Notes: a model not told the origin generated them from the sequence alone. A stretch of DNA of 64,000 bases from Candidatus Eiseniibacteriota bacterium (GCA_963717505.1 OY970342.1:1696001-1760000), one strand, 5' to 3'; shown: positions 8,031-64,000, counted from the stretch's first letter. Numbers and translations are program-made.

Positions 8031-9764
8031 TCAGGGAGCCCGGAAGTCGATCGCCATCACCCGCTCGGGATGGGCCTCGACCTTGTAGCGTGGCCGATGG
8101 CGGGCGATCAGCTCCTTGACCCGTCGTTCGGACTCGATGTTCCGCATCGACTCGTCCACCAGCTGTTCGACCTCGCGGAACTCGAGTTGGCGTCCGCCGT
8201 CGTAATTCAGGAGCTGGATCACACCGAAGGAGCCCTGGCGGTCCGGTCCCTCGACCACCACGTTCCCGGGCCGCATCTCCTCGAACAAGACCTTGTGGTA
8301 AGGCCCGTGCTCGTTGTGCGATCGCGTCTGGATCGACCCGCGCGTACGACCGGCGAGCGAATCCGCGCGCAGCAGGGCCGCCGGGTCGGCGCCGGCCACC
8401 AACAGCTGCTTCAGTGAGTCGGCCTCGGCCCGGGTGCTGGCGACCATGGCCACGAACCGCACGGTCGGATAGGTGAAGTACCCCGCCTTGTTGTCCTCGT
8501 AATACTTGCGGCGCTGCTCGGGCGTGATCTGGACCAGAGACTCGACGGAATCGCGAAACAGGTTGGTGACCATCAGCTCCTCGCGCTTCTGATCGATCAA
8601 AGTGGCAGCCAAAGGGTCCTTGTCGATGCCGCGCTCGATGGCCAATTCCACCATGGTCGGCTCCAGGATGAGCGCGTCCACCTGGATCTTGATGGCCTCG
8701 AGCGTCTCCAGCGCCGGACGGAGCATCGGCGACATGCTGTGCAGAGAATGAACCAGGTCCTTCACCGTGACCTGTCCGCTCCGGTGACGGGCCAGGACGC
8801 GACCCTCGTCCGTGGGGCTGAAGTCGGGCAGGTTGGGGTCGATTTCGAGCACTGGAGCTTCATCCCCGGAGGTCAGCTTGACCGACTTGCGGAACTGCTC
8901 GGAGGCCCAAGTGCAGTTGGCCTCGTCGTAGTGAACGTCGAGCTCCGCGATCAGCTCCTTCTGGATCTGTCGGGTTCGAACCGCCGCGCGCTGGTTCTGG
9001 ATCTGGCCGATGATCGCCCGGCGCAACGGCTCGAGGGCCGGAGCCTTGGTCGGCCTGCGTTCCACGAGCTGGACCACCTGGTAGCCGCTCGGATCGCTGA
9101 TGACGTCGGTGATCTGGCCCGGCTTGAAGCTGAACACCTGGGCGGCAAGCATCGCATCGACCCCCATGCGCCCGCGCCAGCCGATGTCGCCGTCGCGCAC
9201 CCGATCCTCGGCCGTCGAGAAGCGTCGAACCGCGACGCTCCACGCGATCTTGCGCGCGACCAGGTCACGCCGCACGCGTTCCGCCGTCGCCCGGTCGGCG
9301 AACTGGATGCGCTTGAGTCGGACTTCCCACTGGAACTGCTCGTAGGTTTCCTGAATGTCCTGTTCGGTGATGTGGATCGAGTCGATGACCATGCGCTGGT
9401 AGAGGACGTTGGAGATCACGCGGTTCGAGTAGTCGCGCAGTTCCGAACGCTGGGCGAAATCGAGCGGTGCGTTGACCTCGTAGGCCAGGAGTGCCAGGAC
9501 TTCCTTGTTGATCATGGTGTTGAGGAAGGTGACGCGCCCCAGGCTGTCCGGGCGCGGGCGGGTCGGCGCGTCGGAGTCGAAGAAGGCCTGCATGAACCGT
9601 TCGGCGCGAATGACGCGGGTTTCGACCCGTGCCATCACCGTGGAGTCGGGCAGCGGCTTGGACTGGGCCGCTCCGGCGACTACCGGCAGGATCGAAAGGG
9701 AGAGCCAGAGCGAGACGGCGAACATCGTCGGGCTCGGCGGGAGAGGGCCATGCACATGGGGCAT
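8031..9764 (-). CDS. Periplasmic SurA/PrsA-like peptidylprolyl isomerase with two PpiC-type modules
   Basis: Signal-like N-terminus; S.AED...GDIGW, PGQITDVI...GYQVVQLVE; second module YYEDNK..YF..VRF. Confidence 0.8.
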   Translation of the reverse strand: MPHVHGPLPPSPTMFAVSLWLSLSILPVVAGAAQSKPLPDSTVMARVETRVIRAERFMQAFFDSDAPTRPRPDSLGRVTFLNTMINKEVLALLAYEVNAPLDFAQRSELRDYSNRVISNVLYQRMVIDSIHITEQDIQETYEQFQWEVRLKRIQFADRATAERVRRDLVARKIAWSVAVRRFSTAEDRVRDGDIGWRGRMGVDAMLAAQVFSFKPGQITDVISDPSGYQVVQLVERRPTKAPALEPLRRAIIGQIQNQRAAVRTRQIQKELIAELDVHYDEANCTWASEQFRKSVKLTSGDEAPVLEIDPNLPDFSPTDEGRVLARHRSGQVTVKDLVHSLHSMSPMLRPALETLEAIKIQVDALILEPTMVELAIERGIDKDPLAATLIDQKREELMVTNLFRDSVESLVQITPEQRRKYYEDNKAGYFTYPTVRFVAMVASTRAEADSLKQLLVAGADPAALLRADSLAGRTRGSIQTRSHNEHGPYHKVLFEEMRPGNVVVEGPDRQGSFGVIQLLNYDGGRQLEFREVEQLVDESMRNIESERRVKELIARHRPRYKVEAHPERVMAIDFRAP

Positions 9765-9950
9765 GTTCGGAGTCTCCGGGGGCGCTTCCGCGCCGGTAGT
9801 GGGGGTCGCACGCCATCGTCTCGGAACCTGATCGGCCCCGGGTTCGAAGGCTCGGAGTGCGTTCCGGGAAGCAGTCGAAAGGGCCGTTGAGTCTAATAAG
9901 GACGCTTGTCGCAGGTCAACGGCGGCTTGTGCGACTCCCCGGGTCCATGG

Positions 9951-11294
9951 TCAAGGCTCGGTCATTTCCACGAGTACTGCGTCGTTGCTGCGCACGCGCA
10001 CTCGTTTTCGCTCGCGCTCGATCAGCGCACGGAGCCGACCGGCGACCTGATCCTCGTGCCAGGCCCGGCGCACCTCGGGGCGGACCTCGTCGAGCGGCCG
10101 CACGCGGGCCGGGAGAACCGCCTGGACTCGGGTGACCCGCCAGCCGCCGGCCACCGAATCGGGTCCGATCACGGCTCCGGGCCCGGAGCGACGAGCACCT
10201 TCGAACAGGGCGCTGTCGCTCTCCGCGGAGATCTCGATCTCGTAGCGTGCACCTTGCCGGCGCCCGCGCGCCGCCAGGCTTTCGGCGTAAGCGGCGTTTG
10301 CGAGCTCGAGCGCCAGCTTCGTCGCCTCGCGGCGGCCCGGAAGCGTCAACGTGATCACCTGGAGACGAACCGGCAGCGTCCACGAAGCCGAGTGAGTTCG
10401 ATGGAAGTGCTCGAGCGCGCTCGCGTCGGGTTCCGGGATCGGATCGTAGACTTCTCGTTCCATCAGGTGACGTACCGCGATCAGCTCGCGCTCCCGTTCG
10501 AGGGCCGCCTGGAATTCGGGAGTGCGATCGATCCCCGATCGGGTGGCCTCGAGCCGCAGCCAGCGCTCGAACAGACCGTTGTCGACCAGGTTGCGCACCT
10601 GATCGGCCTCGGTGACCCGCGGACGGTAGACCGGCTGGAGGCTGGCGTAGTGGTCGACCAGGTCGCCGACTGTAAAGTTGCCGGCGGCAGCCGTCGTCGC
10701 GAGCGATTTCGCTCGCTCCTCGGTCGTGACCTCGGGGACCGCGCTGAGGGCCCGCATCTGGGCCGCGAGCGAGGAGTCCGACGAAGGTCGCGGCAAAGCC
10801 GCGAAGGCGGCGGCCATGCGTTGGAGCTGCGCCTCGTCGTAACGAGGCGCGAGGGACTGGATCGCGCGTTCCCGGGCGGCGATGCCGACGGTACCGGCGT
10901 CGGCCGCGGAATCCCCGTCTGCGGCCAGAGCGCCTCGGGCGGCCGCCAGGGCCGACTCCAGAGCGGGACGGAGCAGCATGCGATCCCGGGCCGCGGCGAA
11001 GTAGGCGCTGTCCTCCGCGGTCCAGGCCACGGGCTCGCGGGTCGCCGCCGTGGCAATCAGCTCACGGTCGACCAGGGCTTCGAGAAACCCCCGGGCCTCT
11101 TCCGGGGTAGGCACCGATGCCGAGGCCCCGGGGTGGGTTTCGGACCAGGCCCTTTGGAACGACGACACGGTGACGGCCCGCTCCCCGACGGTCGCCAGGA
11201 CCGAGTCTGGGAGGCTGGCCGCTCCGGCGGCAGCGCCCGGGGGCAGGACGAGCACCAGGGCCAGTCCTGCCGCCGAAACCTTAGAGTTCCCCAT
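9951..11294 (-). CDS. Second SurA/PrsA-like foldase (degenerate PpiC)
   Basis: Start at ATG 11294 (MGNSKVSAAGLALV..); VLATVGERAVT, FLEALVDRELI, RPLDEVRPEV SurA-like motifs; the longer track ORF is a shadow of porU. Confidence 0.7.
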   Translation of the reverse strand: MGNSKVSAAGLALVLVLPPGAAAGAASLPDSVLATVGERAVTVSSFQRAWSETHPGASASVPTPEEARGFLEALVDRELIATAATREPVAWTAEDSAYFAAARDRMLLRPALESALAAARGALAADGDSAADAGTVGIAARERAIQSLAPRYDEAQLQRMAAAFAALPRPSSDSSLAAQMRALSAVPEVTTEERAKSLATTAAAGNFTVGDLVDHYASLQPVYRPRVTEADQVRNLVDNGLFERWLRLEATRSGIDRTPEFQAALERERELIAVRHLMEREVYDPIPEPDASALEHFHRTHSASWTLPVRLQVITLTLPGRREATKLALELANAAYAESLAARGRRQGARYEIEISAESDSALFEGARRSGPGAVIGPDSVAGGWRVTRVQAVLPARVRPLDEVRPEVRRAWHEDQVAGRLRALIERERKRVRVRSNDAVLVEMTEP

Positions 11295-55444: not shown

Positions 55445-55586
55445 TTCGTTCGCAGGCTATTGTCCTCCGCCGAGGTAGACCGGGACCTGATTTGGCCGCC
55501 GATTGTACGCAGTGCTCCCCTGGGGCGTTCCCCCGCTACGCGCCCTTTCCGCCGGCAAGATCGACCCCTCCGGTCGGCAATTGAAA

Positions 55587-56789
55587 ATGAAGATCGTCTG
55601 CATTGGTGGCGGGCCTGCCGGCCTCACCTTCGCCATGCTCGCTCGTCTTTGTCATCCGGAGGCGGAGGTCACGGTCCTCGAGCGCAATGCTCGCGGCGTG
55701 ACGTACGGTTGGGGCGTCGTGTTCCCGGAGGCTCTGCTCCGCGGAATGAGCCGCCACTGTCCCGACACCGCCACCGAGATCGCGCGTTCGGCGACGATGT
55801 GGATCGACCAGCACGTTCACGTTCGCGGGGCGCGCCCGGCTCATCTCGGCCGCCACGGGTACAGCATCGGCCGCGCCGAACTGCTCGAGATCCTCGGGTC
55901 GCGGGCGGAGCGTCTCGGGGTGTCGATCCAGTGCCAGGACGTCGTGGACGACCTGGGAATCCTCGAGGATGCTGACCTGGTGGTGGCCGCCGACGGTGCG
56001 AACAGCCGGTTGCGGGCGAGTCGCGCCGGGCGCTTCGGCACGCGCGTCCTGAGCGGTCAAAACCGGTACATATGGCTCGGCACCAGTCGAGAGTTCCCGG
56101 CGTTCACGTTTGGCTTCGAATCGACGCCGGCGGGATGGATCTGGTTCCACGCTTATCGCTACGCGCCGGCGGCCAGCACGTTCATTGCCGAGTGCTCGGC
56201 GGAAACCTGGCAGGGCCTGGGACTCGACCGGTTGGACGCCGCGTGCACGACCCGGCGTCTCGAGGAGATCTTCGCCGGCTACCTGGACCGCCATCGGCTC
56301 ACCGATCAGATGGGGCCGCTGGGCAAGGTCGGTTGGCAAACCTTCGGCACGATTTCGAATGAGACCTGGGTCGACGGGAACCTCGTGTTGATCGGCGACG
56401 CGGCGCACACCGCGCACTTCTCGATCGGTTCCGGAACGCTCTTGGCGGTCGGCGACGCCCTGGCCCTGGCCGATCAACTGCGCACCCGCGCGGCGCTGCC
56501 GGCCGTGCTCGCGGCCTATGAAGCGCAGCGCCGCCCTGAGGTCGAGCACTTCCAGGCCGCGGCCCGCAACAGCGCCTCGTGGTTCGAGAGGATTCCAGAG
56601 CTGATCGAGCAGCCGGCGGTGGATTTCGCCTACGGCTTGCTGCGGCGGCGCGAGGGGCCGTCGGTGCGGAGCGAGACCGGTCCGCGCTGGCGCTACCCGA
56701 TGTACCGAGCCATGCAGTGGGGTGTCTTGTCCGAAGCGCGGCGCTGGATCACGGCCACGCGACGGAGGTGGCGCCCGAAGTACCGCTAG
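55587..56789 (+). CDS. FAD-dependent monooxygenase (similar to the salicylyl-CoA 5-hydroxylase N-terminal domain)
   Basis: MKIVCIGGGPAGL, YGWGVVF, AADGANS, GDAAHTAHFSIGSGT. Confidence 0.85.
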   Translation: MKIVCIGGGPAGLTFAMLARLCHPEAEVTVLERNARGVTYGWGVVFPEALLRGMSRHCPDTATEIARSATMWIDQHVHVRGARPAHLGRHGYSIGRAELLEILGSRAERLGVSIQCQDVVDDLGILEDADLVVAADGANSRLRASRAGRFGTRVLSGQNRYIWLGTSREFPAFTFGFESTPAGWIWFHAYRYAPAASTFIAECSAETWQGLGLDRLDAACTTRRLEEIFAGYLDRHRLTDQMGPLGKVGWQTFGTISNETWVDGNLVLIGDAAHTAHFSIGSGTLLAVGDALALADQLRTRAALPAVLAAYEAQRRPEVEHFQAAARNSASWFERIPELIEQPAVDFAYGLLRRREGPSVRSETGPRWRYPMYRAMQWGVLSEARRWITATRRRWRPKYR

Positions 56790-56856: not shown

Positions 56857-58812
56857 CTAGCCCCGCTCGCCCTCGCCGGGGCGCAGCTCGTGGCGATCGA
56901 GCATGCGGTAGAGCGTGCTGCGCGCCACGCCCAGGGAGCGGGCGGCGCCGCTCAGATTGCCGCGCGAGTAGTTGAGCGCGCGCAACAGCGCGGCGCGCTC
57001 CGCAGACGAGCGCAGATCGCCGCGTTCGTGGGACTCGGTCGACTCCTCGATCGGCAGGTGCCAGAGCTCGATCCGCGGGGCGTCGCCGGCCAGAACCACG
57101 GCGTAGTTGAGCGCACTGCGCAATTCGCGCACGTTGCCGGGCCAGTCGTGCTTCTCGATCCACATCAGCGCATCGTGTGAAAGGGCTGGCGGCTGGCTCA
57201 GTCCGCGCGTTCGAGCGATGCCTTCGAGCAGGGCTTCGGCCAGCTCCCGGCGATCATCGCGGTCGCGCAGGGGAGGCAGCCGCAGCACGACGCCGCGCAT
57301 CCGGAAGTACAGGTCGCTGCGGAAGCGCCCCTGCTCGACCAGCGTCGGCAGCTCGCGACTGGTTGCCGCGATCAGGCGAACGTCGGCGCGACGCTCCGAG
57401 GCTTCGCCGACGCGATAGAACGTTCCGTCTTCGAGGAATCTCAACAACGCCGCCTGGGCGGGCGACGACATTTCGCCGACTTCGTCCAGGAACAGCGTTC
57501 CGCCGTCGGCTGTGGCGAGCTTCCCGGTGCGCCCGGTCGGGGCGGCGCCGGTGAACGAGCCGGGTCCATAGCCGAACAACTCGGACTCGAGCAGGGTGCC
57601 GGCGAGCGCTCCGCAGTTGACCGCGACGAACGGCGCGCGCCCGCGAGCGCTGCTGGCATGGATGGCGCGAGCGAAGATCTCCTTGCCCGCGCCGGTCTCG
57701 GCGAGCAGCAGGATCGGCAGATCGGTGCGCGCGAAGCGCGCGGCCTGGCTGCGTGCGGCGACCACCGCGGCATCGGTGCCGACGATGGTCGAGAAGGCTT
57801 CCGGTACCGAATCTCCGATGCGGGTTGCTCGCCGGCGATCGCTGCGTTGCCGCAGATGGACGATCGCCGCGAAGGGGTCGTCGGGCGGGCCGATGGGCTC
57901 GAGCTCGACGCGCAAACCGTCGGGCAGTGGGCGGCCCGCGTTGCCTCCGGTCGAACGGGATTGGACGAAACGGACGATCTCGGACGGCTGCAGTCCCGGA
58001 AGCAGGTTCCGGAAATGGGGGTTGATCCGGCGCACGTGCCCGGTCATTTCGACCAGGAGCGTCGCATGAGGGAGCCCCCCGAGCAATCGCTCCAACCCGA
58101 ACAGACCGCCCGGGTGCGCGGCGTCGTACGTGCGGGCCACGATCAGGGCCTCGATCGCCGCCGCCGTGGCGACTACGGAGGCGTGGATGAAGCTGTCCGC
58201 GGAGGCGATCGGCCCGGTGGCATCGAGGATGCCGACCAACCGTTGGCGGATGTCGCGCACGGGAGATGCATAGCAGGCCAGTCCGTGATTGCGTCGCTCG
58301 AAGTGCTCGACGCCGACCACCGACACCGGCGAATCCTCGGCCAACGTCGTTCCGATTCCGTTGGTGCCTCGGGCTTGCTCCGACCACACCGCGCCCTCGA
58401 CCACGCGGCTTTGCGTGACCATCGAACGAAACGGCTCGGAGATCCGCCGGGCGACGACCATGCCGCGGGCGTCGCAGAACAACCCGCAATAGCCGGCGCT
58501 CGCGATCGACGAAGCAAAGGCGTCGAAGGGCGCTCCAGTGGCGAGCAAGGGGGAGAATCGTTCGAGCGCCTCGGGGAGGGCGTCGAGGGCCATGCGTGGC
58601 TCGCCCGGATTGTCCGCCGACAGCCCGGTGTCCCGACACCTCTGCCACCGTCTGAGGACCAGGCTGCTTTCGATCTCATCCGGGGAACAGGCTCCGGATT
58701 GGAATCGTTCCCAGAGCTGGAGATCTGTGGCTGACTGCTGGATGGGGGTCACGTCATGAACGATATCCCCGGTTCCACAGGGCTTCAATAGCGAACCCAC
58801 CAGCGACGCCAT
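56857..58812 (-). CDS. Sigma54-dependent activator with GAF domain (AcoR-like, Fis HTH)
   Basis: W.E..RGTNGIG GAF; ETGAGKE, ESELFG, GSFTGA, LFLDEVGE, WPGNVREL, C-terminal HTH; start uncertain. Confidence 0.92.
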   Translation of the reverse strand: MASLVGSLLKPCGTGDIVHDVTPIQQSATDLQLWERFQSGACSPDEIESSLVLRRWQRCRDTGLSADNPGEPRMALDALPEALERFSPLLATGAPFDAFASSIASAGYCGLFCDARGMVVARRISEPFRSMVTQSRVVEGAVWSEQARGTNGIGTTLAEDSPVSVVGVEHFERRNHGLACYASPVRDIRQRLVGILDATGPIASADSFIHASVVATAAAIEALIVARTYDAAHPGGLFGLERLLGGLPHATLLVEMTGHVRRINPHFRNLLPGLQPSEIVRFVQSRSTGGNAGRPLPDGLRVELEPIGPPDDPFAAIVHLRQRSDRRRATRIGDSVPEAFSTIVGTDAAVVAARSQAARFARTDLPILLLAETGAGKEIFARAIHASSARGRAPFVAVNCGALAGTLLESELFGYGPGSFTGAAPTGRTGKLATADGGTLFLDEVGEMSSPAQAALLRFLEDGTFYRVGEASERRADVRLIAATSRELPTLVEQGRFRSDLYFRMRGVVLRLPPLRDRDDRRELAEALLEGIARTRGLSQPPALSHDALMWIEKHDWPGNVRELRSALNYAVVLAGDAPRIELWHLPIEESTESHERGDLRSSAERAALLRALNYSRGNLSGAARSLGVARSTLYRMLDRHELRPGEGERG

Positions 58813-58905: not shown

Positions 58906-58922
58906 TCGGCCCGGCTCTTGCT
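58906..58922 (+). promoter_or_regulatory. Sigma54 (-24/-12) promoter
   Basis: TCGGCCCGGCTCTTGCT versus consensus YTGGCACGNNNNTTGCW (GG-N10-GC, 2 mismatches), divergent from the activator gene. Confidence 0.65.
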
Positions 58923-59070: not shown

Positions 59071-59328
59071 ATGCCTCGATCCCCCGATGCAGTGAAGCGC
59101 GAGCTGCGGCAGCACATCGTCGGCCGCTACCTGCCGGGCGAAGACCCCGAACGGCTCACCGAAGACCTCGAGCTCCAGACCTCCGGTGTCCTGAACTCGG
59201 TCAACACCCTGGAACTGGTTCAGCACCTCGAGACCACCTACGGGATCTCCATGACCGCGCACGAGATCGCGACCCGGCTCTCCACGGTGCGAGCCATCGC
59301 TGCTCTGGTCGTCGAAAAGGCCACCTGA
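59071..59328 (+). CDS. Stand-alone peptidyl/acyl carrier protein
   Basis: 85 aa; GVLNSVN with the phosphopantetheine Ser; TAGAAT 6 nt before ATG suggests a leaderless start. Confidence 0.85.
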   Translation: MPRSPDAVKRELRQHIVGRYLPGEDPERLTEDLELQTSGVLNSVNTLELVQHLETTYGISMTAHEIATRLSTVRAIAALVVEKAT

Positions 59329-59334
59329 TCGACG

Positions 59335-60891
59335 ATGCTGGTCGACGGGTTCGAGCACGCCGCGAAGTCCAATCCCGGGCAGCCGGCGATCGAGGACCGC
59401 GAGGGCCGGCGACTCACCTATCGGTCGCTCGATGCGGCGGCATCGCGGATCGCGCATCGGCTTCGGATCTCGGGTGTCGCGCCCGGTGACCGTGTCGCGA
59501 TCCATCACCCCAAGTCGATCGAATCGGTCGCCGCGATTCTCGGCGTGCTCAAGGCGCGGGCCGCGTACGTTCCGCTCGACGCGAGCGCTCCGATCGAGCG
59601 CAGCCGTCACATTCTCGGCGACTGCGGGGCGAAGGTGCTGTGCACGAACCCGGACGGGGCGGCCCGGTTCGGCCCGGACGCAGGCTGCGCGATGCTCGCT
59701 CTGTCACCGATACCGGCGGACGAGGCGGATTCGTCGTGGCTCCAGGGCGCCGACCCCTCATGGCGCGCAGCCGAGCCGGTGCGCCCCGAGGATCTGAGCT
59801 ACATCCTGTACACCTCCGGGTCGACGGGCGTACCCAAGGGAGTCATGCACACCCATGCCAGCGCCGAGAGTTTCGTGAGCTGGGCGTTTCGCGCGGTCGA
59901 GCCGCGCGCCGAGGATCGCTTCAGCAGCCACGCACCGTTCCACTTCGATCTGTCCATTTTCGACCTCTACGTCTGCTTTCGTTCCGGTGGCACGCTGGTC
60001 CTGGTCGACGAGTCGCTCGGCGCTCGGCCGCTGGATCTGGCGGCATTCATCGCCGAGCGATCGATCTCGATCTGGTACTCGGTGCCTTCGATCCTGGCCC
60101 TGCTCGCGGAGCACGGAAAGCTCGCGCAACACCGTTTCGATCGCCTGCGGATCATCGTCTTCGCCGGCGAGGTGTTCCCGATTCGGCCGCTCCGGCTGCT
60201 GCAGAAGCTGCTTCCGGGGAGGACCTACTTCAATTTCTACGGCCCGACCGAGACCAACGTGTGCACCGCCTACCGCCTGCCCGGTCCGATTCCCGAGTCG
60301 CAGACGACGCCGGTGCCGATCGGGCCGGCGTGCGACAACGTCCGGGCGATGGTCCTCGATGAGGCACAGTGTCCGGTCGAGCGTGGCGGGGAGGGACTGC
60401 TCTACATCCACGCCTCGGGCCCGACCATGCTCGGCTACTGGCCGCCGAGCCCCGACGGGGAGTCGAAAGCGTTCCATCGCGCGCCTTCGGGCGAACGTTG
60501 GTATTGCACCGGCGATGTGGTCCGTGAGGATCCGGACGGCAACTATGTCTACGTCGGGCGCCGGGACCGAATGGTGAAGCGGCGGGGCTACCGCATCGAG
60601 CTGGGCGAAATCGAGAACGCCCTGAGCCAGCACGACGAAGTGCGCGAGGTGGCGGCGGTCACTGCGGACACGACCGGCCAGGGCCTCGAGATCGTCGCGT
60701 TCCTGGTTCCTGCGAGCCCGGCTGATCGCATGTCGATCATCGCGCTCAAGCAGTACTGCATGAGCCGGCTGCCCGGCTACATGTGCCCCGATCGATTCGA
60801 GTTCCTCCCAGTACTGCCGCGCACCGCCAACGACAAGGTCGACCTGCAGGCACTCGCGCGCAGCGCGCAGCGGAAGCCGGCCGGCGAATGA
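59335..60891 (+). CDS. Stand-alone amino-acid adenylation enzyme, probable L-prolyl-PCP ligase
   Basis: YTSGSTGVPKG, FDLSIFD, FAGE, YGPTETNVC, TGD, RIELGEIE, P...NDK; hand-read pocket about DLFYVAFVCK. Confidence 0.85.
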   Translation: MLVDGFEHAAKSNPGQPAIEDREGRRLTYRSLDAAASRIAHRLRISGVAPGDRVAIHHPKSIESVAAILGVLKARAAYVPLDASAPIERSRHILGDCGAKVLCTNPDGAARFGPDAGCAMLALSPIPADEADSSWLQGADPSWRAAEPVRPEDLSYILYTSGSTGVPKGVMHTHASAESFVSWAFRAVEPRAEDRFSSHAPFHFDLSIFDLYVCFRSGGTLVLVDESLGARPLDLAAFIAERSISIWYSVPSILALLAEHGKLAQHRFDRLRIIVFAGEVFPIRPLRLLQKLLPGRTYFNFYGPTETNVCTAYRLPGPIPESQTTPVPIGPACDNVRAMVLDEAQCPVERGGEGLLYIHASGPTMLGYWPPSPDGESKAFHRAPSGERWYCTGDVVREDPDGNYVYVGRRDRMVKRRGYRIELGEIENALSQHDEVREVAAVTADTTGQGLEIVAFLVPASPADRMSIIALKQYCMSRLPGYMCPDRFEFLPVLPRTANDKVDLQALARSAQRKPAGE

Positions 60892-62216
60892 TGGTGGCGA
60901 CCGCCATCGAGGCGAAGCCCAGCCGCGCCTTCGGCGCCTCCGACGTGCTGCAGAAGCTGGTCCTGATCGCCGAGCTGTTCCTGCTTTGCGTGGTGCTCGA
61001 GGAGACCCGAATCATCTCGCCGGCCTTCACCCGGATGTTCTGGGTCGTCGCCGCCGGCGTCCTGCTCAACGATTTCGTTCCGGCCCGGGTGCGGCCCGCC
61101 TTCTTCCTGGTCCTGTCTCTGGTCTGCACCGCCACCGTGCTCCAGGTGGTGCCGACTCTGGTTCTGGTCGGCGTCGGCCTGGCGTTGATTGGGGTCTGCC
61201 AGCTGCCGCTGCGGCTCGGCTACCGCATCGCGATCCTGGCGGCCATGGCAGCGGTGGTCGCCGTCTATCGCACCGGGGCTTCCTGGCTGCCCCAGCCATC
61301 CATGGACATCCTGGTGATCATTCCGGTGCTCGCGTCGATGTTCATGTTCCGCCTGTCGATCTACCTCTACGACAAGGAGAACACCAAGTCGCGGCTGCCC
61401 TGGACCCAGACGCTGAACTACTTCTTCATGCTGCCGAATGTCTGCTTCCTCCTGTTCCCGGTGGTCGACTACACGACGTTCCTCCAGTCCTACCGCGATC
61501 GCGAGCGCTGGCGGGTCCAGCAGATCGGCGTCCGCTGGATCCTGGTCGGCCTGGTTCAGCTGCTGCTCCTGCGTCTGGTCGAACTGCACGTGGTTCGCGA
61601 TCCCGACGAGCTGGTCACGCGCCTCGACCACTTCCTCTACGTGATCTCGGCGTACCTCATGTACCTGCGCGTGTCCGGCCAGTTCCACATGATCGTCGGC
61701 ATCCTGCATCTGTTCGGCTACGAGCTGCCGCGGACCAACAACAAGTATTTCCTGGCGTCGAGCTTCACCGACCTGTGGCGGCGCATCAACATTTACTGGA
61801 TGGAGTACATGCGCAAGATGATCTACTACCCGGTGCTGCTGCGATTCCGCGGCTGGGGCCCGGTGCGCGCTTCGGTCGCGGCCACGGTGTGCGTGTTCCT
61901 GGCCACCATCGTCCTGCACGCGTACCAGTACTTCTGGTTGTCGGGCGATTTCCGCGTGTCGGTCCGCGACCTGTTGTTCTGGGGTCTCCTGTGTGCGCTG
62001 GTGCTGGTCGACATGTATCGTGAACGCCGGATGCTGGAACGCCAGCGCGCGCGCGGCACGGGACCGCGCGCCGGTGGCTGGCGGTCGGTCCTGGGGGCGC
62101 TGCCGGGCACGGCCGCCACCCTGGTCGTGATGACGATCCTGTGGTCCCTGTGGTCGAGCGAGTCGATCAGCCTGGGGCGCTGGCTCGAGATCCTCGGGAA
62201 GGTCGTGGTGCCGTGA
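60888..62216 (+). CDS. MBOAT-family membrane acyltransferase (DltB/AlgI-like)
   Basis: Many TM helices; FGYELP..N.YFLA.SFTDLWRRINIYW; catalytic-position His in ATIVLH. Confidence 0.85.
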   Translation: MMVATAIEAKPSRAFGASDVLQKLVLIAELFLLCVVLEETRIISPAFTRMFWVVAAGVLLNDFVPARVRPAFFLVLSLVCTATVLQVVPTLVLVGVGLALIGVCQLPLRLGYRIAILAAMAAVVAVYRTGASWLPQPSMDILVIIPVLASMFMFRLSIYLYDKENTKSRLPWTQTLNYFFMLPNVCFLLFPVVDYTTFLQSYRDRERWRVQQIGVRWILVGLVQLLLLRLVELHVVRDPDELVTRLDHFLYVISAYLMYLRVSGQFHMIVGILHLFGYELPRTNNKYFLASSFTDLWRRINIYWMEYMRKMIYYPVLLRFRGWGPVRASVAATVCVFLATIVLHAYQYFWLSGDFRVSVRDLLFWGLLCALVLVDMYRERRMLERQRARGTGPRAGGWRSVLGALPGTAATLVVMTILWSLWSSESISLGRWLEILGKVVVP

Positions 62217-63385
62217 AGGTCGCGTGGATCGCAGTGAATGTCGCGCTGCTGGCGGTGCTCGGGGTGTTCTTCAACCGGGACGTGTACTCGCGGCTGGGGC
62301 CGGCGGCGACCCTTTACGTCGATCGCCTGCGCAGCGACGCCCTGATCAAGGAGGAGAGCCGTTCCGAGCTGTCGACCTACTACGAGGACTTGCTGTTCGA
62401 GGGCGGCAGCATCAAGGGGTATCTCGCGAGGCGCTACGAGGGATACAACTATTCGCTCGACGAGTGGGATCCGTTCGACGGCGACGACTCGCCGCACTGG
62501 CAGCCGACCGACGACCTGCGGGTCCTCGGTCCCAAGCCGTCGCAGGTCGTGATGCTCGACCGGATCGCGCACACCTTCAACTCCATCGGACTGCGGGACC
62601 GCGAGTACCCGCCGGTTCCCGCCGACGACACCTACCGGATCGTGATGCTCGGCGCGTCGAACCTGATGGCGCACGGCATTCCCGACGGCAAGGGTTTCGA
62701 GGCCCAGATCGAAGACTCGCTCAACGCCGAGCCGGTCGGTCCGTGGAAGGCGTTCGAGATCCTCAATTTCGGCTACGACTCGTACACCGAGGTCAAGAAC
62801 CTGGTCCAGATCGACCAGGGCGATGTGTTCCCGCTGCGTCCCCGGCTGGTGGTCATCATCACGCACTCGATCCACGACTTCTGGGAGTGGGATTTCATCG
62901 ACCTGGTCTCGCGCGAGCAGTACGCGCAGATCGGATATCCCTACCTGATCGACCTGGGCAAGAAGCTTCGGTCCGAGCACCGTCGCCAGTTGCGCGATTC
63001 GGAGCGCGACGACGTCGTCCGCTGGGCCTACGGAGAGCTCCGCGCGCGCTGCGCGGCGGCATCGGTGAAATGCGTGGCGGTCGGCATTCCGTTGCCGAAC
63101 AGCCTTTCGGACCCCAAGCGGCTGGAGGAGCGCATGAATCTGATCCGCTCGACCGGCATGCCGGTGATCTCGCTGCACCGGAGCCTCGAGGGGCGTGATC
63201 TGGTCGAGCTGCAGCGCGAGCCGTGGGACGATCTCCACTTGAACCTGGAGGGGCACCGGATCGTCGCCCACGACCTCTATCGCGCGCTGCTCGAACACGA
63301 CGCCGAGTTCGGGCTCGGACTCAGGGTTCGGCCCTCGGAGCCGCTCGTGACCGCCGGATCCGGTGGCAGGGCCGTGCGGCCATGA
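62213..63385 (+). CDS. Membrane-anchored SGNH-family protein (DltD/AlgJ-like)
   Basis: N-terminal TM; NSIGLRD, RIVMLGAS, LNFG, DDLHLN.EGH. Confidence 0.78.
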   Translation: MKVAWIAVNVALLAVLGVFFNRDVYSRLGPAATLYVDRLRSDALIKEESRSELSTYYEDLLFEGGSIKGYLARRYEGYNYSLDEWDPFDGDDSPHWQPTDDLRVLGPKPSQVVMLDRIAHTFNSIGLRDREYPPVPADDTYRIVMLGASNLMAHGIPDGKGFEAQIEDSLNAEPVGPWKAFEILNFGYDSYTEVKNLVQIDQGDVFPLRPRLVVIITHSIHDFWEWDFIDLVSREQYAQIGYPYLIDLGKKLRSEHRRQLRDSERDDVVRWAYGELRARCAAASVKCVAVGIPLPNSLSDPKRLEERMNLIRSTGMPVISLHRSLEGRDLVELQREPWDDLHLNLEGHRIVAHDLYRALLEHDAEFGLGLRVRPSEPLVTAGSGGRAVRP

Positions 63386-64000
63386 CGCTCGACTCGACGG
63401 CGGTTCCCCTCACTCCGGCGCAGAAGGAACTGCGCGACTCGGCCGCCGCGTTCGCCCGCAAGCATCTCGGCCCCGGGGCCGGCCACGCCGACGAGGCCGC
63501 GGCCTTCACGCGGGATGCCTGGCGGAAGTGCGCCGAGTACGGCGTCCAGGGCCTGCCGTTCCCCGAGGCCTATGGCGGCCAGGGGCAGACGGTCGAAGGC
63601 ACGATCGCGGTCATGGAAGGCCTCGGCTACGGGTGCCGGGATCATGGCCTCCTGTTCTCGATCAACGCCCACATGTGGGCGTGCGCGATGCCGATCCTCC
63701 AGTTCGGCACCCCCGATCAGAAGCAGCGCTACCTGCCGGACCTGTGCAACGGCAAGAAGATCGCGGCCAACGCAGCGAGCGAACCCGGCTCGGGATCGGA
63801 CGTGTTCAGCATGCGGACGCGGGCGGTGCGCGACGGCGACCACTACGTGCTGAATGGCTCCAAGATGTTCGTGACCAACGCGCCGGTCGCCGACCTGTTC
63901 GTGCTGTACGCGACGGTCGATCCGGAATACGGCGCCGCCGGCATCTGCTGCTTCGTGATCGAGAAGGGCACTCCCGGTCTCCAGGTCAGCCGCCCGATCG
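63382..64000 (+). CDS. Acyl-CoA dehydrogenase family, probable prolyl-PCP dehydrogenase (partial, runs off the window)
   Basis: ATG overlaps previous stop; read by hand: AWRKCAEYGVQGL.FPEAYGG, MEGLGYGCRD.GLLFSINAH.WAC, QKQRYLP, SEPGSGSD, NGSKMFVTNAP. Confidence 0.82.
   Translation, partial: MTLDSTAVPLTPAQKELRDSAAAFARKHLGPGAGHADEAAAFTRDAWRKCAEYGVQGLPFPEAYGGQGQTVEGTIAVMEGLGYGCRDHGLLFSINAHMWACAMPILQFGTPDQKQRYLPDLCNGKKIAANAASEPGSGSDVFSMRTRAVRDGDHYVLNGSKMFVTNAPVADLFVLYATVDPEYGAAGICCFVIEKGTPGLQVSRPI

Follow-up and report, generated by a model that had tools for sequence, protein, structure and literature searches.

The window analysed here, a stretch of 64,000 nucleotides (G000:C1:1696001-1760000), is part of the 4.16-Mb single-contig genome of a Candidatus Eiseniibacteriota bacterium. 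The G+C content of this stretch is about 68%. Towards the end of the window the listing of open reading frames (ORFs), their translations and the sequences of the junctions define five co-directional genes on the + strand, between position 59071 and window-equivalent position 64542. A trio of carrier protein, adenylation (A) enzyme and acyl-CoA dehydrogenase (ACAD) is here interleaved with a membrane protein of the MBOAT type and a protein of SGNH fold, in the order carrier–A–MBOAT–SGNH–ACAD:

59071-59328, + strand: stand-alone carrier protein of 85 amino acids, with its phosphopantetheine serine in GVLNSVNT (Pfam PP-binding, 27.9 bits)
59335-60891, + strand: stand-alone adenylation enzyme of 518 amino acids, PltF-like and predicted to be specific for L-proline (AMP-binding and AMP-binding_C domains)
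60888-62216, + strand: divergent MBOAT of 442 amino acids, with invariant His344 and near-invariant Asn301 (AlphaFold2 model, Foldseek)
62213-63385, + strand: membrane-anchored SGNH-fold protein of 390 amino acids, with an N-terminal transmembrane helix and the motif GYYExL (AlphaFold2 model, Foldseek)
63382-64542, + strand: ACAD of 386 amino acids resembling prolyl-carrier-protein dehydrogenases (three ACAD Pfam domains in the full gene)

The ACAD gene runs 542 nt beyond the end of the window (L001:5382-6542). A sequence-only reading had described these genes as a tightly coupled operon, and the junctions bear this out: the carrier and A genes are separated by a gap of 6 nt, the stop and start codons of the A and MBOAT genes overlap in ATGA, those of the MBOAT and SGNH genes in GTGA, and those of the SGNH and ACAD genes again in ATGA. 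A GGGAAGG stretch stands 5' of the GTG start of the SGNH gene. An ORF at 62224-63198 was considered as the SGNH gene and rejected as a wrong frame, its translation being rich in Arg, Ala and Gly; the real fourth gene (62213-63385) lies in the frame of ORF 62141-63385.

The ligase, carrier and dehydrogenase

The adenylation enzyme scores 356 bits with the NCBIfam model AA-adenyl-dom, above the cut-off of 317, and falls short of both DltA models (265.9 bits against a cut-off of 476, and 258.5 against 559.85). Its best single-domain match in the PDB is PltF (6o6e), an L-proline-[L-prolyl-carrier protein] ligase, at 342 bits; other single A domains reach no more than 240 bits, and DltA entries only 191-207. 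With the pocket segment alone the figures are 121 bits for PltF, 82 for the proline ligase 7thn, which was crystallised with PigG, and 74 for DltA. The enzyme therefore stands outside the DltA group, as had been proposed. A match of 415 bits to LgrA was discounted as a sign of specificity for Gly or Val, since two domains contribute about 200 bits each to it.

A substrate pocket that had been read by hand from the sequence was reproduced by HMMER alignment to PltF. At the ten positions which are presumed to line the pocket (residues 205, 206, 209, 248, 275, 277, 301, 309, 310 and 501), the residues taken from the alignments compare as follows:

Present A enzyme: DLFYVAFVCK
PltF: DLLYLALVCK
Proline ligase 7thn: DLFYIAWVCK
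DltA 3dhv: DLMTLCTVA

Seven of the ten residues are shared with PltF and eight of the ten with the 7thn ligase, and all 19 related A enzymes from the loci described below conform to DL[LF]Y[LF]A[LW]VCK, nine of them being identical to PltF. The A enzyme is accordingly predicted from its sequence relationships to be a prolyl-carrier ligase of the PltF type, specific for L-proline.

The phosphopantetheine serine of the carrier, Ser43, is invariant in all 14 orthologues. A profile built from the carrier and 13 orthologues finds, among PDB entries, an unnamed peptidyl carrier protein (2my5, 59 bits) and the Bmp1 carrier (6cxt_A, 54.5 bits), followed by PltL (45.6 bits), PigG (44 bits) and DltC (34.8 bits), and the NSxN motif that had been likened to that of PltL is indeed alike in the two proteins, LNSVN here against LNSMN in PltL. 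Against the NCBIfam DltC model the carrier scores 17.7 bits, where the cut-off is 68. Its best NCBIfam model is ACP_for_OlsHI, at 72 bits and again below the cut-off (130). This was rejected as a lead to ornithine-lipid synthesis: neither OlsH nor OlsI, respectively a GH3-like enzyme and an alpha/beta hydrolase (PMC12493201), is present here.

The four best PDB matches of the ACAD are all prolyl-carrier dehydrogenases, namely AnaB (4irn, 424.5 bits), 6cxt (333.6 bits) and PigA (5zw0 and 6af6, 318 and 315 bits), and ordinary ACADs reach no more than 286 bits. According to one source, 6cxt is Bmp3 with the Bmp1 carrier, in a pyrrolyl complex (PMC8857579). The two best NCBIfam families are PigA (451.5 bits) and RedW (440.6 bits), with the next family at 315 bits; with the RedW model, the operon enzyme reaches 441 bits, and no other ACAD of the genome exceeds 276. 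The expectation that the dehydrogenase would lie apart from ordinary fatty-acyl-CoA dehydrogenases was thus upheld, and by its nearest solved relatives it is assigned to the functional class of the L-prolyl-carrier-protein dehydrogenases.

The oxidation state of the product is suggested by two related clusters from Planctomycetota, each of which holds a flavin halogenase (Pfam Trp_halogenase, with GGGPAGS and WAWQIP motifs; best NCBIfam model CmlS):

L045:16197-17498, + strand: flavin halogenase at the ACAD end of the cluster, with about 1 kb between it and the ACAD gene
L047:3044-5441, - strand: flavin halogenase on the ACAD side of the cluster, contiguous with the operon; an O-methyltransferase gene is also present in L047

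In known pathways such flavin halogenases act on aromatic pyrrolyl-S-carriers, and these neighbours therefore favour a four-electron oxidation, to the pyrrole, over one that stops at pyrroline.

The membrane pair and its association with the trio

The third gene product finds no Pfam match even at E≤10, and so remains below the threshold of PF03062; its only match to a sequence family is NCBIfam DltB, at E 2e-4 and 20.7 bits against a cut-off of 375. Structure predictions of this protein and of the SGNH protein were made with AlphaFold2 using 100 homologues. The MBOAT model has a predicted local distance difference test score (pLDDT) of 93.4, and ranks 1-29 of its Foldseek list are all MBOATs, headed by DltB (8jem and 6bug; E 5e-8, TM 0.56-0.64) and followed by HHAT, PORCN, MBOAT7, DGAT1, LPCAT3 and ACAT; in the structural alignment with DltB only about 10% of residues are identical. 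When the protein was compared by hhalign with a Pfam-verified MBOAT of the AlgI/DltB-like kind from a relative (L021), the probability was 96.4% and E 1.4e-9, and the LWHG histidine of that protein was paired with His344, and its WRRWH histidine with Asn301. His344 is invariant in 101 of 101 sequences and Asn301 near-invariant, so that, compared with the Pfam-verified protein, an asparagine takes the place of the first histidine.

The SGNH protein similarly scores 18 bits with Pfam Lipase_GDSL_2, below the cut-off of 32.9. Its model (pLDDT 84.7) begins with a helix at residues 2-19, and residues 44-66 lie below pLDDT 50. Foldseek returned 144 matches among PDB structures at E≤1e-3, with nothing but GDSL/SGNH enzymes at the head of the list, and the closest of these neighbours are esterases and thioesterases such as TesA. 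Across 101 sequences Y56, Y57, N123, R142, G147, S149 and H342 are invariant, and D339, N185 and G153/G155 near-invariant, a pattern of conservation that supplies the block I serine, the block III asparagine and the block V aspartate and histidine of the SGNH superfamily. The labels given to these two proteins from sequence alone therefore stand at the level of fold, the models confirming an MBOAT fold for the third gene product and an SGNH fold for the fourth, while neither protein reaches the threshold of its family profile.

An invariant GYYExL motif (Tyr56 and Tyr57 of the present protein) falls within the segment of low confidence, after the membrane anchor and ahead of the SGNH domain; the segment that bears it is presumably mobile, to judge from the model. 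According to one source, acyl relay in known MBOAT-SGNH pairs proceeds via the tyrosine of an FXYXXF motif, which is found either at the MBOAT's C-terminus or on DltX (PMC12148441). Canonical MBOATs encoded in the genomes of the relatives end in F[IV]YF[QR]F. Since FXYXXF is missing from the present MBOAT-SGNH family, GYYExL is put forward, by analogy, as a candidate substitute for it as the acyl shuttle. Where the MBOAT and SGNH proteins are encoded by separate genes, GYYExL remains with the SGNH gene.

Separate genes are not the usual arrangement. In nine of the ten relatives' loci first examined the two proteins form one open frame of about 830-1025 codons, and in most relatives the fused protein has about 860 amino acids. 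With the fused protein as query, a library search returned 11135 representatives at E≤1e-3, a number that falls to 2770 at E≤1e-10 and to 977 at E≤1e-30, and 143 of the best 150 are at least 816 amino acids long. The split in the present genome is not favoured as a recent frameshift, because its A enzyme groups (96/92) with those of Planctomycetota clusters in which MBOAT and SGNH are likewise separate, and because GGGAAGG precedes the GTG start.

A search of 206 genomes of the same phylum matched the MBOAT in 12 at E≤1e-5, eight of them strongly (the present genome, G000, included); the four weak matches are canonical MBOATs. Trio genes adjoin the MBOAT-SGNH pair in six of 11 gene copies: the complete trio is adjacent at the present locus and in L027, L032 and L034, and in L030 and L031 one trio gene is seen before the contig ends. 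No trio gene occurs in the available DNA of the other five (L010, both L028 copies, L029 and L033), and in three such genomes the trio is located elsewhere, with an A enzyme of the same clade: G207 (L043), G010 (L035) and G056 (L040). In a sample of 401 Planctomycetota genomes, nine were matched at E≤1e-40 and gave ten loci. All five genes are present in seven of these; L011, a contig of 3.9 kb, carries the ACAD gene and a fused MBOAT-SGNH gene; and the remaining two have no trio gene within about 9 kb. Copies of this kind imply that the MBOAT-SGNH module is not bound to a proline-derived donor.

Three complete gene orders were found, carrier–A–MBOAT–SGNH–ACAD at the present locus, [MBOAT-SGNH]–carrier–A–ACAD with the fused gene, and ACAD–MBOAT–carrier–A–SGNH; a fourth, ACAD–[MBOAT-SGNH], is cut short in L011 and L031. 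A tree of 20 A enzymes and the two A domains of a nonribosomal peptide synthetase (NRPS) of the present genome was built with IQ-TREE, no rows being dropped. The genomes that encode the MBOAT-SGNH pair contribute 14 A enzymes, and all of these fall into one clade (100/99), separate from enzymes linked to hexapeptide-repeat acyltransferases, and it is within this clade that the present enzyme joins the Planctomycetota clusters with split genes; the two outgroup rows have long branches. The question whether the pair is conserved together with the trio is in this way answered in the affirmative, over two phyla and at least three complete gene orders, and with no polyketide synthase (PKS) or NRPS adjacent.

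Prediction of a complex between the MBOAT and the carrier gave an ipSAE of 0.44 against 0.00 for the best control, at a mark which 116 of 157 solved complexes and two of 215 mismatches reach, and in a range, up to 0.60, where only 18 of the 157 fall; the runs share at least 92% of contacts, the partner has a pLDDT of 80, and the verdict was weak support. Since a complex of DltB with DltC has already been solved, this pass may reflect likeness to it.

The loci of several relatives have an envelope-glycan context. In L010 the fused MBOAT-SGNH gene lies between those of two LtaS-like sulfatase-domain membrane proteins, with GT2 and PMT_2 (ArnT-like) genes near. The setting is that of an envelope polymer and lacks the trio, which in that genome is on another contig. 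The L010 features are:

L010:5388-7508, - strand
L010:14829-17000, - strand
L010:2398-5086, + strand

Near the trio in L035 are genes for a UDP-GlcNAc 2-epimerase, a Wzx-like flippase and a GT4 glycosyltransferase, and in L049 and L050 a GT2 or GT4 glycosyltransferase and a CE4 deacetylase are encoded upstream on the same strand. Two proteins encoded beside the unlinked trio in L035 were tried as distant MBOAT-SGNH relatives and rejected (hhalign probability 0.3%). In the same genome the fused gene copy L029:9557-12113 (G010:C2) is interrupted, with one in-frame TAG and two overlapping frames; it may represent a pseudogene, or else the assembly may be in error there.

PltF-like A enzymes are more widespread than the pair, being found in 59 of the 206 genomes of the phylum (E≤1e-60). 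In six of six loci fetched for a second cassette the A enzyme adjoins an ACAD of the same kind, and three of the six encode, among the ORFs scanned with Pfam, a hexapeptide-repeat acyltransferase of the WbbJ/NeuD type; among those ORFs a carrier was recognised only in L036. The three stretches are:

L036:8434-12259
L037:6768-10632
L042:9240-14874

To judge from these domains, the second cassette may serve to acylate a sugar with the same proline-derived group, and because A–ACAD loci hold hexapeptide-repeat acyltransferases, the proline-oxidising donor module seems to be combined with different transferases.

Surroundings of the operon

Over 8 kb upstream and 14 kb downstream, the surroundings of the operon contain neither a PKS or NRPS domain nor a soluble acyltransferase to accept a pyrrolyl group; domain scans likewise found no condensation domain, ketosynthase or other acyltransferase inside the operon itself. 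The only condensation domain of the genome, at a distance of about 345 kb, is served by an adenylation–thiolation (A–T) loading protein of its own. It belongs to the only NRPS of the genome (G000:C1:2098924-2104388; L053:5924-11388), where an A–T protein and a C–A–T protein are followed by an alpha/beta hydrolase and a GT4 glycosyltransferase.

Divergent from the operon, at 56857-58812 on the - strand, is a gene for a sigma-54 activator (Sigma54_activat, AAA lid and HTH_8 domains), the first 340 or so residues of which match no family. The intergenic region contains one possible recognition element:

58907-58922, + strand: tentative sigma-54 -24/-12 element, CGGCCCGGCTCTTGCT, about 150 nt 5' of the carrier gene

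Of the 71 matches to the pattern in the window, three have two mismatches to the consensus, and this element is one of them. Since 92 matches were expected from shuffled sequences, the pattern alone is not significant.

Further upstream, at 55503-56789 on the + strand, is a gene for an FAD monooxygenase, the best match of which is the N-terminal half of salicylyl-CoA 5-hydroxylase (372 bits, cut-off 1078), with VioD also matched. It was rejected as a halogenase, as it has no WxWxIP motif and only 26% identity to the L047 halogenase. On the other side the operon is followed by a convergent peroxiredoxin gene, and just 3' of this are genes for PEGA-domain proteins (L001:7440-8411, + strand, and 8506-10704, - strand; window-equivalent 65440-68704), one of these proteins being fused to a STAND/AAA ATPase.

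A proposed relay and its alternatives

Several known systems share parts of this organisation. In the Dlt pathway of Firmicutes, which D-alanylates teichoic acid through DltA, DltC, DltB, DltX and DltD, the logic of adenylation enzyme, carrier, MBOAT and SGNH protein is the same, and among solved structures DltB matches the present MBOAT best. The present A enzyme differs in being PltF-like, with a pocket of the proline type, and is no orthologue of DltA; the operon has an extra flavin oxidase; and its MBOAT-SGNH family has an internal GYYExL, no FXYXXF having been seen, with the two proteins fused in most relatives. The description Dlt-like, used in the sequence-only reading, accordingly holds for fold and pathway logic and fails for orthology, since the equivalog tests for DltA (258.5 bits against 559.85), DltC (17.7 against 68) and DltB (20.7 against 375) are all negative. 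Dlt is, according to one source, the only MBOAT-SGNH pathway described with a carrier protein as donor, the others using acyl-CoA without a carrier (PMC12148441). Among the latter, O-acetylation systems such as PatA/PatB and AlgI/AlgJ/AlgX similarly combine an MBOAT with an extracytoplasmic SGNH transferase, and differ in having acetyl-CoA as donor, no carrier protein and FXYXXF at the MBOAT's C-terminus; the same source gives their SGNH proteins a Ser/His/Asp triad and presents a tyrosine-based acyl relay as a working model (PMC12148441).

The nearest solved or curated relatives of the trio itself are the pyrrole-forming trios of type II NRPS systems (PltF/PltL/PltE, PigI/PigG/PigA, RedM/RedO/RedW, and the Bmp1 carrier with Bmp3), from which the present operon differs in that its sole partner is a membrane MBOAT-SGNH pair. 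In known pyrrole pathways the pyrrolyl group passes to a PKS or NRPS or to a soluble acyltransferase. In anatoxin-a biosynthesis AnaB, the best solved relative of the present ACAD, is part of a trio of proline ligase, carrier and oxidase (AnaC/AnaD/AnaB) that hands pyrroline to a PKS, whereas no PKS is found over the 8 kb upstream and 14 kb downstream of the present locus. The closest precedent for the chemistry is provided by the aminocoumarins (CloN1-CloN7), where pyrrole-2-carbonyl is esterified from a carrier protein to a sugar hydroxyl, that of noviose. There the transfer is carried out by soluble cytoplasmic acyltransferases on a small-molecule acceptor; the present operon differs in having a membrane relay in their place. 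The earlier statement that no system of this kind has been described still holds for the literature searched, to judge by titles and abstracts and with a coverage that did not extend to subscription journals and supplements.

On balance it is reasonably likely that the operon encodes a second carrier-protein-dependent MBOAT-SGNH relay, by which a proline-derived group, probably pyrrole-2-carbonyl, would be moved to an extracytoplasmic acceptor. The pocket code and the nearest relatives of the A enzyme suggest that it would adenylate L-proline and load it onto the phosphopantetheine arm of the 85-residue carrier. The flavin-dependent ACAD would then oxidise the prolyl-S-carrier; its family and the halogenase neighbours in two relatives indicate that four electrons would most likely be removed, giving pyrrole-2-carbonyl-S-carrier. 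The MBOAT, with His344 as catalyst, would accept the carrier-bound acyl group on the cytoplasmic side and convey it across the membrane, where it would probably be handed to a tyrosine of GYYExL, the segment that follows the membrane anchor in the SGNH protein, by analogy with the acyl-tyrosine shuttle of DltX and PatA. Finally Ser149, with Asp339 and His342, would take over the group and place it on an acceptor outside the cytoplasm, for which a glycan or some other polymer of the envelope is the most plausible candidate. Within this scheme the oxidation state, the acceptor, the transfer and the use of the carrier as donor by the MBOAT are inferred. The earlier proposal that a proline-derived acyl group is moved by the MBOAT and SGNH proteins is thus supported: on the three points tested, the ligase stands apart from DltA, the dehydrogenase apart from ordinary ACADs, and the pair is conserved together with the trio; Dlt-like applies, as noted, to fold and logic only.

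Several observations weigh against this relay. The pocket code departs from that of PltF at three of the ten positions. The ACAD lies under both of its NCBIfam equivalog cut-offs (PigA 451.5 bits against 500, RedW 440.6 against 650), and its best solved relative, AnaB, is a two-electron oxidase that yields pyrroline and not pyrrole. The canonical FXYXXF motif is absent, the present MBOAT having no tyrosine at its C-terminus, with no search made for small ORFs resembling DltX. No glycan genes stand beside the present locus, and the halogenase and methyltransferase found next to related clusters would suit a small-molecule pathway no less than the modification of a polymer. Lastly, the family is large (977 representatives at E≤1e-30), and five of the 11 copies in the phylum and two of the ten in Planctomycetota are without the trio in the available DNA. 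The same relay might instead move a pyrroline-carbonyl group, after a two-electron oxidation, or the unoxidised prolyl group. For this speak the lead of AnaB among solved relatives of the ACAD (424.5 bits, with 6cxt at 334 and PigA at 318), the ACAD's position below the two equivalog cut-offs and the lack of a halogenase in the present operon. Yet among NCBIfam families PigA and RedW still score highest (451 and 441 bits), the third reaching 315, a flavin halogenase has been added in two related clusters, and both the A enzyme and the carrier are closest to proteins of pyrrole pathways, PltF on the one hand and PltL, PigG and the Bmp1 carrier on the other; a cargo less oxidised than pyrrole is considered unlikely.

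Nor is it probable that the pair serves for export or off-loading, acting as a transmembrane thioesterase or esterifying enzyme so that (halo)pyrrole-2-carboxylate, or a small or lipid ester of it, is secreted as a natural product. The halogenase of natural-product type and the O-methyltransferase beside the L047 cluster, and the halogenase of L045, would suit such a role, as would the esterases and thioesterases (TesA among them) that are nearest in structure to the SGNH model, and the present operon and several relatives have no glycan genes near. Set against this, genes for glycan synthesis stand beside the module or the trio in four loci (L010, L035, L049 and L050), the invariant Tyr-Tyr segment suits relay to a transferase, and the bacterial MBOAT-SGNH pairs characterised so far all acylate envelope polymers (PMC12148441). 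It is very improbable that trio and pair are merely neighbours, the MBOAT-SGNH proteins O-acetylating a polysaccharide from acetyl-CoA in the manner of PatA/PatB while the trio feeds another pathway. Such independence would account for the loci, five of 11 in the phylum and two of ten in Planctomycetota, where the trio genes are not adjacent, for the closely related trios that are paired with hexapeptide-repeat acyltransferases instead, and for a prediction of the MBOAT-carrier complex that gives weak support. It fits poorly with genes interleaved in two different ways (the present order, and ACAD–MBOAT–carrier–A–SGNH) and with overlapping stop and start codons, with a single clade of MBOAT-linked A enzymes that spans two phyla and occurs also in genomes where the MBOAT-SGNH genes are unlinked, and with an operon that offers no alternative acceptor enzyme, whether condensation domain, ketosynthase or other acyltransferase.

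A wider statement can be made only tentatively, and is rather more doubtful than the relay itself: that at least two phyla, that of the present bacterium and Planctomycetota, place pyrrole-2-carbonyl, halogenated in some of them, on an envelope glycan or polymer through a Dlt-independent relay with a GYYExL shuttle and an Asn/His site in the MBOAT. If the proposed relay is correct, it would be a second carrier-protein-dependent route of MBOAT-SGNH envelope acylation besides Dlt, with a heteroaromatic acyl group supplied by natural-product enzymes. The chemistry of bacterial surfaces would be widened by the use of a natural-product warhead as cell-surface decoration, and pyrrole-forming trios would gain a role outside PKS and NRPS pathways. 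A donor would also be assigned to part of the large uncharacterised family of fused MBOAT-SGNH proteins (977 representatives), and with only five genes the operon would make a compact test case for the acyl-tyrosine relay model, its cargo being both chromophoric and distinct in mass.

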